Part shown: piece after piece, positions 5,280-54,292 of the stretch | How positions within the stretch are numbered: position 1 is the stretch's first letter | Layout: each line of letters starts with the position of its first letter | NCBI GenBank assembly: GCA_943359325.1 | Contig: CALRHD010000004.1 | Coordinates: 5,836 to 69,835 of the forward strand | Length of the DNA stretch: 64,000 nt | Reading direction: 5' to 3' | Origin: Candidatus Uhrbacteria bacterium | Lineage (GTDB): Bacteria; Patescibacteriota; Patescibacteriia; UBA9934 | Notes under the pieces: model-generated | Databases searched by the model: none | Told to the model about the DNA's origin: nothing | The model's input: the letters and a program-made list of their open reading frames with translations, nothing else | Position numbers and translations under genes: made by a program

Positions 5280-5299
5280 ATCCCCATGAAAATGGGGAT
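5280..5299. terminator. perfect hairpin atcccca-tgaaaa-tggggat
   Basis: 7-bp inverted repeat with a 6-nt loop. A similar tcccca/tgggga hairpin recurs at 34513-34536. Confidence 0.4.
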
Positions 5300-5316
5300 C
5301 CATGTTCATTCGCTCT

Positions 5317-5511
5317 GGATTCCCGCCTACGCGGGAATGACAAACCTGTGTGTTGAGGCGTCCATAAGAGCCTGTTTATAATCTCACACGTTTCCCATAA
5401 ATGCATCGCTAACGCTGTCATCCTCACGAATGTAGGGAACCGGTGTATTTCTTTGGATTTTCGCTTACGTGGGAATGACATGTCCGTCTGTTGAGGCATT
5501 TATAAGACTGC
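5317..5511. repeat. two copies of a roughly 57-nt direct repeat (5317-5374 and 5455-5511, about 75% identical), each with an internal hairpin, lying downstream of the minus-strand tRNA-Ala
   Basis: ggattcccgcctacgcgggaatgaca...gttgaggc...taaga aligns with ggattttcgcttacgtgggaatgaca...gttgaggc...taaga. Copy 1 contains the palindrome tcccgc-ctac-gcggga. Confidence 0.55.
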
Positions 5512-34512: not shown

Positions 34513-34540
34513 AAATCCCCAATAAAGTGGGGATTTTATT
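34513..34540 (+). terminator. rho-independent terminator after tRNA-Cys
   Basis: AAATCCCCA-ataaag-TGGGGATTT followed by a T-rich stretch. Confidence 0.6.
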
Positions 34541-45270: not shown

Positions 45271-45657
45271 TTAGCCTGTTGACGTTGCCGTACCGAGCTG
45301 GTCGATAACGAACGACGAAATGGCGTAAGCCGAGAGCAAGATGATGAGACCAATGACCGAGTTGAGCAAAATGCCGCGTGCCTTTTTGACGTTGTCTTCG
45401 TTTCCTCCCGCAGTCATCCAGAGGAGTCCTGCGTAGATGATGAGAATGAGGAAGATAACACCGAGGAAGCCGAGCAGTACGCTAATGAGCGAACCGATCG
45501 TCGTTGTGAGACTTCCTGCGTCACCACCAAGACCGGCGGAGTCGTTGACTTCATCGAGCTGGCCTGAGAGGTCAACGGCGTGTGCACTTTGCAGTGCGAT
45601 GGGTGCGAGTGGCAAGGCAGCCATTGCTGCCGCCATGAGTGCGTGTTTGAGCTTCAT
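45271..45657 (-). CDS. TrbC/VirB2-like pilin family protein (paralog 6 of 6)
   Basis: Signal peptide ending AHA. Conserved core LISVLLGFLGVIFLILIIYAGLLWMTAGGNEDNVKKARGILLNSVIGLIILLSAYAISSFVI (two TM helices around the WMTAGGN motif). Confidence 0.7.
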   Translation of the reverse strand: MKLKHALMAAAMAALPLAPIALQSAHAVDLSGQLDEVNDSAGLGGDAGSLTTTIGSLISVLLGFLGVIFLILIIYAGLLWMTAGGNEDNVKKARGILLNSVIGLIILLSAYAISSFVIDQLGTATSTG

Positions 45658-45666
45658 AGCAAAAAA

Positions 45667-46041
45667 TTAATATGTGTTAGTACCTACATAGCGTATCACG
45701 GTTGCCGAAATCGCATAAGAGGATAACACGATTACGAGTCCAATAACCGCGTTGAGCAAAATGCCGCGTGCCTTTTTTACTTGATCGGCGTTCCCTGCAG
45801 CCGTCATCCACAAGAGTCCTGCGTAAATCGTAAGAAAGAGAAAAATAACACCAAGAAATCCGAGCAGTACGCTAATGAGTGTACCGATCATTGGCAGCAA
45901 TCCTTCAGACGAAAATGCGGCGTCTTGCGTTGCACCCGCAGCAACTGTTGCACTGTCGTAACTTATTGCATGCACCAAAAGAGGAGTTGCTGCAACGAAC
46001 AGACAGGCATATAACGTTGCGGTGAGAAGGGGGCGACGCAT
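45667..46041 (-). CDS. TrbC/VirB2-like pilin family protein (paralog 5)
   Basis: Internal ATG (MRRPLLTATLYACLFVAATPLLVHA) chosen to avoid overlap with the upstream paralog. Same conserved core LISVLLGFLGVIFLFLTIYAGLLWMTAAGNADQVKKARGILLNAVIGLVIVLSSYAISA. Confidence 0.7.
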   Translation of the reverse strand: MRRPLLTATLYACLFVAATPLLVHAISYDSATVAAGATQDAAFSSEGLLPMIGTLISVLLGFLGVIFLFLTIYAGLLWMTAAGNADQVKKARGILLNAVIGLVIVLSSYAISATVIRYVGTNTY

Positions 46042-46042
46042 A

Positions 46043-46435
46043 TTACGGTGATCCGTTAATATCTCCAACGGTGAGCGCATTGAAAATCGCCGCAGTGAGC
46101 GCGTACGCTGCAGTAACGATCACAAGACCAATTACAGAATTGACCATTATTTCTCGAGCTTTTTTGACCTGGTCGCTGTTACCTGCCGCAGTCATCCACA
46201 AGAGTCCGGCGTAGAGCATGAGGAGAAGGAATATGACGCCGATCAGCGCAAGAATGGGGGCAATGATGTATGTGCCGATAAAGACGGTAATGCCACCCGT
46301 CGCATTGTTTGTGTCGTAGTTTGCAACCTCTCCAGTGCTAATGAGCCCCGTGTCGCTGAGTGCGATTCTCGCTGAAGCAAGCGCCGGCAGAGAAAGCGTG
46401 AACACGAACAGAAGGGTGACGAGGAGTTTTCGCAT
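46043..46435 (-). CDS. TrbC/VirB2-like pilin family protein (paralog 4)
   Basis: Signal peptide MRKLLVTLLFVFTLSLPALASA. Core ILALIGVIFLLLMLYAGLLWMTAAGNSDQVKKAREIMVNSVIGLVIVTAAYA. Confidence 0.7.
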   Translation of the reverse strand: MRKLLVTLLFVFTLSLPALASARIALSDTGLISTGEVANYDTNNATGGITVFIGTYIIAPILALIGVIFLLLMLYAGLLWMTAAGNSDQVKKAREIMVNSVIGLVIVTAAYALTAAIFNALTVGDINGSP

Positions 46436-47839: not shown

Positions 47840-47970
47840 ACCGAAGTGTGGGGTAGTCCGCTCCTCGCTGCGACCCTCCGAGCCGCAGTCCCTGCAGCAG
47901 GGCCTCGGCGTTACTCGGCCATGGACTGACGGGTCGGGTCTCGCTCGATCGCGAACCACCCCACACTTTT
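47840..47970. repeat. structured GC-rich palindromic element, copy A (roughly 125 nt, closed by agtgtggggt/accccacact), immediately upstream of the pilin operon
   Basis: The core ccgagccgcagtccctgcagcagggcctcggcgttactcggccatggactgacgggtcg is about 80% identical to the reverse complement of 50330-50410. A -10-like TATACT (minus strand) sits about 12 nt upstream of the paralog-1 ATG. Confidence 0.55.
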
Positions 47971-50286: not shown

Positions 50287-50447
50287 AACTGTACCCGCAC
50301 CATATGTCCTGCGACGTCGTTCGGCACCGCCCGTCGCGCTGAGCGCGACCCGTCAGTCCCTGGCCGGCGTAAGCCGAGGCCTTGCTGTACGGACTGCGGC
50401 TGCGGGGCTGAACAAGGAGCGGGATATGTGGTGCGGGTACAGTTTTA
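50287..50447. repeat. structured GC-rich palindromic element, copy B (roughly 160 nt, closed by a 19-bp inverted repeat aaaactgtacccgcaccatat/atatgtggtgcgggtacagtttt), immediately upstream of galU
   Basis: Core homologous to copy A in inverted orientation. A TATACT on the minus strand about 10 nt upstream of the galU ATG. Confidence 0.55.
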
Positions 50448-53216: not shown

Positions 53217-53306
53217 TGGCGGAGAGGGTGGGATTCGAACCCACGTTACCCTTTCGAGTAAACCACATTTCGAGTGTGGCGCGTTCGACCACTCTGCCAC
53301 CTCTCC
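53217..53306 (-). tRNA. tRNA-Ser (anticodon CGA), long variable arm
   Basis: GGAGAGG acceptor, D-arm GCAGAGTGGTCGAACGC, anticodon stem CCACA/TGTGG with loop CTCGAAA, variable arm TTTACTCGAAAGGGTAACG, T-arm GTGGG-TTCGAAT-CCCAC, discriminator G, CCA encoded. Confidence 0.85.
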
Positions 53307-53316
53307 GTATTTATTC

Positions 53317-53586
53317 TCATTTTTCTGTTCGGTTGCCATGAGCGATCGTATCCCTATATTGCTGGTTAAGCAATCTTCTCCCCTCCGTTGTTTTGAGAAA
53401 TTGCTCCCTTCTTATTGCGTCACTTTCACATTGATAGGCTTCGTAGCCTACGAGAACGGTGGGTCGATATGGTTTCGTTGATTGCACGAGTCCTCTGGAA
53501 TGTTCGTCGAGGCGACGTCGTAAATCTCTTGTCATTCCCTTGTAAAGATCCCCATTTTTCAGTTTGAGAATGTAGACGTACCACAT
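53317..53586 (-). CDS. GIY-YIG-domain nuclease family protein
   Basis: MWYVYILKLKNGDLYKGMTRDLRRRLDEHSRG carries the GIY...YIG/R/E signature. 89 aa. Confidence 0.75.
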   Translation of the reverse strand: MWYVYILKLKNGDLYKGMTRDLRRRLDEHSRGLVQSTKPYRPTVLVGYEAYQCESDAIRREQFLKTTEGRRLLNQQYRDTIAHGNRTEK

Positions 53587-53638
53587 ATAAGAAAGATTCG
53601 TCCGGTCATTCGACCGGACGCCCCGTCGGATGACGGGG

Positions 53639-53729
53639 CGAACCCACGTTACCCTTTCGAGTAAACCACATTTCGAGTGTGGCGCGTTCGACCCCTGCCT
53701 GCCGGCAGGCAGGACTCTGCCACCTCTCC
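53639..53729 (-). pseudogene. disrupted second copy of tRNA-Ser(CGA): 5-prime two-thirds identical to the intact gene, a 20-nt perfect palindrome (CCTGCCTGCCGGCAGGCAGG, 53694-53713) inserted in the D-loop, and 3-prime end truncated within the T-loop
   Basis: Identity to 53233-53290 read directly. Divergence begins after GTGGGTTCG. No acceptor 3-prime strand or CCA. Confidence 0.7.
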
Positions 53730-53802
53730 GGGTTTGCTTGTTGGTCGTTCCAACTTTTGAAGCAGTGAAATGGTAACAAAATCAACAGGAAATGCAAATG
53801 TA

Positions 53803-54066
53803 TCATTCGTATATTTCATGATCACCAACGGCAATGAGGGTTATGCGTCTTGGTTTTCCCTTTGGATAAAAAAAGATCATACGAATTTTATAGTTTACTG
53901 AGGCGCTGTAGGCATCGCGAAGCTTTCCTTGTAGTTTATGGACTCCAATGGATTTGTGGTTGGTTTCGTCCTTGAGCTTGTCGACAGCGATAAAGATCTC
54001 GTTTTGTAGGATTTTTGGCAGCGCACGAAGTTGTCGAAGAAAGCGACGTTCGTATTCAATCTGCAT
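53803..54066 (-). CDS. RelE/ParE-family type II toxin
   Basis: 87 aa (MQIEYERRFLRQLRALPKILQNEIFIAVDKL...ITLIAVGDHEIYE), typical RelE/StbE fold pattern. Overlaps the upstream antitoxin gene by 11 nt. Confidence 0.75.
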   Translation of the reverse strand: MQIEYERRFLRQLRALPKILQNEIFIAVDKLKDETNHKSIGVHKLQGKLRDAYSASVNYKIRMIFFYPKGKPRRITLIAVGDHEIYE

Positions 54067-54292
54067 ACTCTTTTGCCATTCGTTTCACGATAGTGCGGAG
54101 ATCGCCCCTCACTACGTCACCTTCGCTGGCATTCCGCATAGATCGGAGGAGTTCTTCGGTTTCCTGTTCTTCCGAGTACCACGATAAGGCCTGCCGAACT
54201 ACCTCAGCTTTTGTTGATGCGCGACCACGTTTGACCATGGTGTTGATAAAACTCTCTAGTCGTGCGGGAAGGGGAACAGAAAGTGTTGCCAT
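54056..54292 (-). CDS. ribbon-helix-helix (CopG/ParD-like) antitoxin
   Basis: 78 aa. N-terminal RHH (MATLSVPLPARLESFINTMVKRGRASTKAEVVRQALSWY). Confidence 0.7.
   Translation of the reverse strand: MATLSVPLPARLESFINTMVKRGRASTKAEVVRQALSWYSEEQETEELLRSMRNASEGDVVRGDLRTIVKRMAKEYAD

Follow-up and report, generated by a model that had tools for sequence, protein, structure and literature searches.

A dispersed 20-bp palindrome in a tRNA-Ser remnant beside a small GIY-YIG nuclease gene of a Candidatus Uhrbacteria bacterium

A contig of a Candidatus Uhrbacteria bacterium (CALRHD010000004.1) holds a gene for a small GIY-YIG nuclease between two copies of a tRNA-Ser(CGA) gene; the downstream copy is intact, and the upstream one is a remnant with a perfect 20-bp palindrome, CCTGCCTGCCGGCAGGCAGG (designated P), in its D-loop. 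How did such a palindrome come to lie in a tRNA gene, and has the neighbouring nuclease anything to do with it? These questions were addressed in a stretch of 64,000 nucleotides of the contig (the window) and in related loci elsewhere. P was found to be a discrete, widely dispersed 20-bp perfect-palindrome repeat, residing here in the dead tRNA-Ser(CGA) remnant of a recurrent cassette. We consider it probable, though far from certain, that this recurrent cassette carries P and a second type of hairpin (HH) as cognate repeats of its GIY-YIG family, which spread as units of 20 nt.

P in the tRNA remnant and at other sites

As shown in Table 1, the minus strand of the window reads, in order, remnant with P, hairpin doublet (H1 and H2), GAATC, spacer, GIY-YIG gene and intact tRNA. 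Alignment of the two tRNA copies showed P to be a pure insertion at AGT^GGT, with unambiguous boundaries and no tRNA base lost. The original prediction, made from the window alone, had rightly placed an insertion in the D-loop but had let it replace two D-loop nucleotides, and the identity it reported between the copies held on both sides of P. It had also let the homology end after GTGGGTTCG, but the T-loop resumes as GAATC past two inserted 20-nt hairpins. The remnant comprises nt 1-75 of 90, with the final 15 nt missing, and breaks off 8 nt before the GIY-YIG start codon (ATG).

Table 1. Features of the tRNA-Ser(CGA) cassette in the window
Feature	Position	Strand	Remarks
tRNA-Ser(CGA) remnant, nt 1-16 (acceptor 5' strand to D-loop)	53714-53729	-	16/16 identical to intact gene
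P element, perfect 20-bp palindrome CCTGCCTGCCGGCAGGCAGG	53694-53713	.	between remnant tRNA nt 16 and 17, D-loop
tRNA-Ser(CGA) remnant, nt 17-70 (D-loop to T-loop TTC)	53640-53693	-	100% identical to intact gene
Hairpin H1 of T-loop doublet, GCCCCGTC-ATCC-GACGGGGC	53620-53639	-	
Hairpin H2 of T-loop doublet, GTCCGGTC-GAAT-GACCGGAC	53600-53619	-	
GAATC, tRNA nt 71-75 (T-loop rest and first T-stem 3' base)	53595-53599	-	remnant's last tRNA-derived bases
8-nt spacer TTTCTTAT, remnant to start codon	53587-53594	-	
89-aa single-domain GIY-YIG nuclease gene	53317-53586	-	PF01541, 2.6e-13
Intact tRNA-Ser(CGA)	53217-53306	-	90 nt, encoded CCA; starts 10 nt past GIY-YIG stop codon

P, which can also be read as an 8-bp stem around a CCGG centre, is the longest perfect palindrome of the window (the runner-up has 14 nt), and no second match to it was found in these 64 kb at ≤3 mismatches (0.00 expected). 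Perfect hairpins with an 8-bp stem and a 4-nt loop numbered 7 in the window vs 1.06 in shuffles, and three of the seven fall within 114 nt of one another, in the remnant; outside the remnant, the window held no similar hairpins beyond those listed in this text. Chance can be dismissed as the source of P; random decay had already been doubted in the original prediction. Neither ARAGORN nor Rfam, even at E ≤ 1, called the remnant as a tRNA, and removal of P in silico did not restore a call. Rfam gave no family for the remnant or the hairpins at gathering or E-value thresholds. A tRNA intron (archaeal bulge-helix-bulge or group I) and a split tRNA were also rejected, the remnant being without its last 15 nt and without an Rfam match.

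Scans for P with its stems fixed and its centre free detected at least 120 metagenomic and 47 viral stretches. Among the matches listed, the exact sequence occupied 142 unique sites in metagenomic and viral contigs, several of which held 2-6 copies, and the G+C content of P-bearing contigs ranged from 0.29 to 0.71. A CCGG centre was present in 146 of the 185 stem matches listed (chance, 1 in 256), and variants of P with single substitutions exist. As controls in the viral collection, a palindrome of the same composition (CCGTCCGTCCGGACGGACGG) and one with swapped halves (GGCAGGCAGGCCTGCCTGCC) gave 0 matches, vs ~40 for exact P. Exact P was absent from the 7.3 Gb of plasmids of cultured bacteria in PLSDB, none was found in isolate phages with an N-padded query (a weaker test), and the 20-mer did not turn up in a full-text search of the literature available. 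Since P is invariant at >140 sites despite their differing genome composition, a shared copying mechanism or a very recent spread is demanded.

At the 142 exact sites there was no target-site duplication beyond chance, the palindrome was not extended into the flanks, whose complementarity was at chance level, and no clear insertion consensus was seen apart from a weak depletion of T at -1. Nor was any flanking tetranucleotide conserved. P was located in D-loops and T-loops of tRNAs, in terminator-like hairpin loops (hairpin loops at loci L107, L115 and L174) and between short tandem repeats. At eight loci (L096, L098, L103, L145, L148, L167, L210 and L241) it lies within degenerate 7-9-nt tandem arrays just past a stop codon, and the arrays resume on both sides of P, as if it had been dropped in. 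Of the small mobile palindromic element suggested by the original prediction, the dispersal and mobile look of P are thus retained; its assignment to the miniature inverted-repeat transposable elements (MITEs) in the strict sense is not, and P lacks the flanking tetranucleotide that marks repetitive extragenic palindromic (REP) sequences. A strict MITE was rejected on the grounds that P measures 20 bp in all, makes no target-site duplication, has nothing conserved beyond the palindrome and comes with no recurrent transposase.

A tRNA-specific element was rejected as well, for ~15 of 187 copies were tRNA-associated, one of them in an otherwise intact tRNA. This is in a viral contig with a G+C content of 0.64 (L244, 2239-2330), where P occupies the variable loop of a tRNA-Met; ARAGORN reads the 92 nt as a tRNA whose long extra arm is P, and P may be tolerated there in a working tRNA.

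The recurrent cassette and its nuclease

A scan of one genome per species gave 80 related GIY-YIG loci (73 with a full open reading frame, ORF), nearly all labelled Patescibacteria, with a few from Omnitrophota, Kiritimatiellae/Lentisphaerae and Cloacimonadota. For all close homologues with fetched contigs, a tRNA (Ser-UGA, Ser-GCU, Tyr or Arg-UCG) follows directly downstream, and an incomplete 5' tRNA copy, broken by 20-nt hairpins of like build, stands before the gene. In 53 of the 73 full-ORF loci a same-strand tRNA starts ≤120 nt past the stop codon; these downstream tRNAs are mostly tRNA-Ser, with all anticodons, and also Arg, Lys, Met, Gly and Pro. At eleven loci the order is mirrored: an intact tRNA comes first and is followed by GIY-YIG, GGTTC, HH doublet, then GAATCC and a tRNA 3' remnant. 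Identity between the remnant and the adjacent tRNA is mostly 92-100%. The remnants end in one of two places, the T-loop or the anticodon loop, and the HH doublet is located ~5 nt inside that end. Related GIY-YIG genes are found at many tRNA species, and they cluster by tRNA only in part.

An intact tRNA is kept beside the remnant in the window and in >60 loci, so that the function of the target is preserved next to the inserted nuclease gene, as with free-standing homing endonucleases. Simple self-immunity of the homing type, by disruption of the target, does not apply, because the intact tRNA is identical to the remnant at every tRNA position compared (16 + 55 nt). No empty allele was found for the window locus. 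A GIY-YIG gene with an in-frame stop, i.e. a decaying copy, was observed beside tRNA-Ser(GCU) at locus L074 (1501-1713), which also has a solo hairpin doublet and T-loop remnant 3' of this tRNA, and a 21-nt P variant after the tRNA-Ser. A literature search on GIY-YIG genes with tRNAs in Patescibacteria/Candidate Phyla Radiation found no description of the cassette.

The two further hairpins noted in the original prediction, here inserted at TTC^GAATC of the T-loop, are the T-loop HH doublet of this cassette family and recur in related loci, with the consensus gggTTC / GcCcgGTCATyCGACcgGgC / GcCcnGTCGrATGACnGGGC / GAatcc. Among 54 distinct doublets, 22 different stems were counted for H1 and 18 for H2, the stems being perfect in 46/54 and 48/54, respectively. 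The polarity of the loops is fixed (ATYC first, GRAT second), and GAATC directly follows the doublet in 27/54. Such hairpins reach a density of 73.6 per 100 kb in the GIY-YIG loci vs 1-3 per 100 kb elsewhere; those of 20-50 nt flank the gene in 73 of the 80 loci, and the remnants often hold further solitary hairpins in their D-, anticodon or variable arms. In P-bearing contigs and viruses, HH-type hairpins were at background level, with one viral match to the T-loop junction motif.

The small GIY-YIG protein is the sole protein family common to independent P loci near P. Over whole P loci, groups of related viral contigs also share phage structural genes, a DNA methyltransferase and serine recombinases, and no transposase family recurs across the 1.1 Mb of these loci. 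GIY-YIG proteins of P loci have 33-46% identity to the window protein. P or a one-base variant was present in the remnants of six other GIY-YIG/tRNA cassettes. In one of them (L058), CCTGCCTGACGGCAGGCAGG lies within the anticodon stem of the remnant; in the other five (L146, L152, L183, L209 and L253), the D-arm of the 5' tRNA remnant holds P, 30-110 nt before the GIY-YIG gene begins. Four of the five have an intact tRNA after the gene, and L253 has an uninterrupted 5' part only, without an ARAGORN call. At L152, the AGT^GGT site of another tRNA-Ser carries P both before and after the gene (P-GIY-P), one copy with a substitution. Wherever P could be compared with an adjacent intact tRNA or an uninterrupted 5' copy, the insertion was exact (8/8).

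P or P-like hairpins were also detected without an adjacent GIY-YIG gene at TTC^GAATC of tRNA remnants, in L154, L187 and L137. This T-loop site, where the main family has HH, is taken by P or by a longer hairpin like it (GCCTGCCCGCC...GGCAGG) at L154 (7300-7400) and L187 (5690-5730). At L137 (150-400), the inverted repeats ATTCTGCTATTGCC and GGCAATAGCAGATAA enclose an intact tRNA-Ala, which stands between 5' and 3' tRNA-Ala remnants, with P in the 3' remnant and no GIY-YIG gene, a tRNA-only version of the cassette.

The window protein consists of one domain, PF01541 spanning residues 1-70 of its 89 aa. Its catalytic residues Tyr5, Tyr15, Arg25, His29 and Glu61 are invariant across 25 relatives. 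Its best solved relatives, 1zg2 and 1ywl (1.5e-11 and 2.2e-9; BH0048 and EF2693), are UPF0213 proteins that are uncharacterised, and SLX1, I-TevI, T4 endonuclease II and UvrC come next, with marginal scores. From its sequence, the protein is predicted to be UPF0213-like and possibly Ssn-like (Ssn nucleases are described below). No second GIY-YIG gene was found within the window.

Immediately 5' of the remnant is a gene pair that encodes a ParD-like antitoxin and a RelE/HigB-like toxin (53803-54292, minus strand). A promoter/terminator scan showed no clear promoter directly 5' of the remnant; the nearest, sigma-70-like, is at 54329-54301 (minus strand), before the ParD/RelE pair, and read-through from this operon may drive the cassette. 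H2 was terminator-like in the scan, a likeness not general across related loci. A 56-aa ORF that gene callers place through P, in a frame other than that of the GIY-YIG gene, and that is recorded on 4 contigs of 50-200 kb (collapsed to one place, one sample), is almost certainly spurious. The GIY-YIG frame is also open for 65 codons 5' of the ATG, across the hairpins, the remnant and P (53320-53781, minus strand), and this extension, too, is almost certainly spurious. For annotation, the remnants are pseudogene fragments, and ORFs running through them, such as that of 56 aa, are spurious. Elsewhere in the window, three tandem 210-nt direct repeats with ~390-nt spacing (45290-46277) and a 56-nt inverted repeat, 84% complementary, with arms 2.4 kb apart (47881-47936 and 50346-50401), were observed.

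Origin of the hairpin insertions

Ssn proteins (CDD cd10448), ~94-aa single-domain GIY-YIG proteins, are site-specific single-stranded-DNA endonucleases that bind hairpin repeats, for which the general name is SRM; those of Neisseria, termed NTS, include the dRS3 palindrome of 20 bp (Chenal et al. 2025, Nat Commun 16:2388, PMC11893778). Such repeats lie near 71% of ssn genes (PMC11893778). By analogy, HH and P would be the cognate hairpin-forming DNA repeats of the present GIY-YIG family. A GIY-YIG gene carrying a replacement tRNA portion would have entered a resident tRNA gene at the T-loop, and other family members at the anticodon loop; the tRNA would have stayed functional and the displaced 5' part would have been stranded. 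The hairpins would then spread as precise 20-nt units, probably through nuclease-dependent nicking, rejoining or copying of folded single-stranded DNA. Such DNA folded into stem-loops is proposed as the reason why insertions are found in D-, anticodon-, variable- and T-loops and in terminator loops. As a perfect palindrome, P offers an identical single-stranded substrate on both strands. The hairpins would survive only where harmless, in the remnant and never in a live tRNA.

The insertions of P and HH would also keep the remnant from folding as a tRNA. P cuts the uninterrupted homology at the remnant's 5' end to 16 nt, and recombination deleting the cassette would mostly give a poisoned tRNA, by which the cassette would be stabilised. 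A bolder version of this account is tentative, and we rather doubt it: P and HH, at 20 nt, would rank as the smallest non-autonomous mobile units known, and single-domain GIY-YIG nucleases acting on single strands would move them in trans by cutting where each unit begins and ends. The cassette would then represent a nuclease-only selfish element of a new class, targeted to tRNA T- and anticodon loops and retained by its hairpin-poisoned remnant.

Several observations weigh against the favoured account. About 170 of the 187 listed P copies lack both a tRNA context and, within the stretch fetched, a GIY-YIG gene; P may therefore depend on something else. The solved relatives closest to the GIY-YIG protein are UPF0213 proteins. 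P differs from the Ssn repeats in lacking GTCAT and in being perfectly symmetric, and the published SRM pattern, HGTCWY..(stem)..(stem)..RNCYNB, gave 0 matches to HH or P in 228 kb of GIY-YIG loci. An alignment of 28 HH doublets, with 99.1% of cells paired and both-side changes in 11/16 pairs, supports conserved pairing less firmly than these figures suggest, the hairpins having been collected at ≤1 mismatch, which inflates the paired fraction. An anti-deletion role is not general, because about half of the remnants are without a D-arm insertion. No mobility event was seen, neither an empty site nor a polymorphism. Finally, cutting by a nuclease does not by itself account for insertion, which leaves a step of ligation or copying to be explained.

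A different mover is proposed if P is a REP- or MITE-like repeat transposed in trans by a conventional transposase, perhaps a single-strand HUH enzyme of the IS200/IS605 type or the REP-associated tyrosine transposase (RAYT) type, with the GIY-YIG gene unrelated and the remnant merely tolerant neutral DNA. This would suit the position of most P copies, far from any GIY-YIG gene, and the multicopy P of high-GC phage-like contigs, and the lack of target duplication together with insertion into hairpin loops would fit single-strand transposition. Against it, the P loci share no transposase family, 20 bp is too short to hold the two subterminal hairpins and cleavage sites of IS200/IS605-type elements, and neither a conserved flanking tetranucleotide nor a target motif accompanies P. 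Moreover, the occurrence of P in tRNA remnants, concentrated in the D-arm, far exceeds the tiny share of intergenic DNA that these remnants make up. We regard a transposase of this kind as unlikely.

Alternatively, the hairpins might be kept for a role in RNA, as a 5' leader, processing or stability signal for a GIY-YIG mRNA made from the tRNA promoter, or as terminators, their spread being secondary. The remnant with its hairpins folds at -75.6 kcal/mol, far below shuffles (z = -4.7), the doublet, of fixed polarity, always adjoins the ORF, either shortly before its start codon or shortly past its end, and many P copies are at terminator positions. However, the exact identity of the 20-mer over G+C contents of 0.29-0.71 indicates copying rather than selection converging on a stable stem, the doublets are nearly devoid of G-U pairs (4/448 cells, an ascertainment-biased count), most loci have no T-run after the doublet, and no Rfam family was matched. 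The Ssn enzymes, for their part, act on DNA, not RNA (PMC11893778). An RNA role as the primary explanation is thus improbable.

The original prediction had also offered a target-site structure created by a nuclease. In this form, P would be a local repair scar, left by fold-back synthesis or hairpin opening after a cut in the D-loop; hairpin-opening repair can add palindromes, and a nuclease gene is adjacent. But the axis of the palindrome is inside the insertion and the flanks take no part, the 20-mer bears no relation to the flanking tRNA bases, and the identical sequence occurs at 142 sites with unrelated flanks, none with flank-derived sequence, all of which makes a scar very improbable. 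Least credible of all is an artefact of assembly or sequencing: chimeric reads can give perfect palindromes and the window is from a short-read metagenome assembly, but the flanks rejoin perfectly into uninterrupted tRNA sequence, every recorded version of the locus carries the insertion (the 4 contigs collapsed to one place in one sample), L152 from an unrelated sample has the element at AGT^GGT of a different tRNA-Ser with a one-base variant beside it, and single-substitution variants of P exist. Derivation of P from technical sequence is unlikely as well, because it is cleanly inserted at identical D-loop sites in independent samples.

Comparison with known systems

The anticodon loop and the T-loop are also where integrase-borne genomic islands and prophages enter tRNA genes, which they restore. 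The cassette shares with them these two sublocations and a partial tRNA duplication flanking the insert; it differs in having no integrase, an insert of ~0.4 kb and a duplicated part that is mostly 5' rather than 3'. REP sequences have a conserved flanking tetranucleotide, GTAG. With REP sequences, their mosaics (BIME) and RAYT, and with IS200/IS605, the present repeats have in common extragenic palindromes, recognition of single-strand hairpins and the lack of target duplication, but P and HH are without the conserved flanking tetranucleotide, no HUH transposase recurs nearby, and the units are exactly 20 nt.

Free-standing endonuclease genes offer parallels in layout. In fungal mitochondria, GIY-YIG/LAGLIDADG ORFs come with C-terminal duplications of atp6 or cob (PMC6279837), and T4 SegB is a GIY-YIG enzyme homing in a tRNA cluster (PMC2330249). 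As in free-standing endonuclease genes, a nuclease ORF splits a conserved gene, a co-resident duplicate keeps the function and a truncated remnant lies beside it; here, however, the target is a bacterial tRNA, the nuclease has no DNA-binding domain, and a conserved double hairpin marks the junction. Mitochondria, too, have short GC-rich hairpins and double-hairpin elements that are mobile, and, like the present ones, these palindromes are scattered in AT-richer genomes and insert into loops of structural RNA genes (reviewed in PMC2800124). They differ in being organellar, lineage-specific in sequence and without a demonstrated tie to a single-domain GIY-YIG gene.

The Neisseria dRS3 repeat (ATTCCC-N8-GGGAAT) resembles P as a 20-bp palindromic multicopy repeat, and forms the core of the Ssn-bound NTS (PMC11893778). 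Its 8-nt centre is variable and it is confined to one genus, whereas P is invariant at 20 positions in contigs of very different base composition. The published SRM pattern recovered the Neisseria NTS and one site in the window, TGTCATTCCCGCGTAGGCGGGAATCCAG at 5315-5342 (minus strand), which fits the Ssn-related motif and is nearly the Neisseria NTS consensus. A degenerate second NTS-type copy was observed 110 nt upstream, at 5451-5480 (minus strand); tRNA-Ala(CGC) lies upstream of both, and neither has a GIY-YIG gene as its neighbour. A hairpin, ATCCCCAT-GAAA-ATGGGGAT (5280-5299), stands beside the NTS-type repeat and is resembled by another just past tRNA-Cys, ATCCCCAA-TAAA-GTGGGGAT (34515-34534); these two may belong to another repeat or terminator family.

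The likeness to Ssn extends to the protein and its surroundings. The window protein is a single GIY-YIG domain of ~90 aa with intact catalytic residues, and its gene is flanked by 20-50-nt hairpin-forming repeats, as in the repeat-gene-repeat layout of ssn that has been likened to an insertion sequence (PMC11893778). The HH hairpins contain GTCAT[TC]C, in common with the NTS motif CGTCATTCC (PMC11893778), but carry GTCAT at the hairpin apex and not 5' of the stem. From the oligonucleotide lengths in PMC11893778 we infer that Ssn cut ~3 nt upstream of the repeat. A cut placed likewise ~3 nt upstream of NGTCAT on H1 would fall within 1 nt of the unit's 5' boundary and, by symmetry, one on the opposite strand would do the same for H2, a suggestive coincidence. 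A further difference is that the present cassette lies within a tRNA gene, of which part is duplicated, in hosts that are Patescibacteria; the Ssn paper mentions neither tRNA genes nor Patescibacteria (PMC11893778).

Ssn are the one characterised branch of these tiny nucleases and are being developed as a tool, which new enzyme-hairpin pairs, one of them perfectly symmetric, would widen. The cassette accounts for many of the stray tRNA fragments and "hypothetical GIY-YIG" genes beside tRNAs in Patescibacteria, and points to an unrecognised route by which tRNA genes are invaded and duplicated, with retained function, in very small genomes. Two features are apparently undescribed, i.e. the tRNA-embedded cassette with its double-hairpin junction, and the invariant 20-bp palindrome across uncultured bacteria and viral contigs. 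The finding is best placed as a variation on the theme of an Ssn-type nuclease with hairpin repeats.

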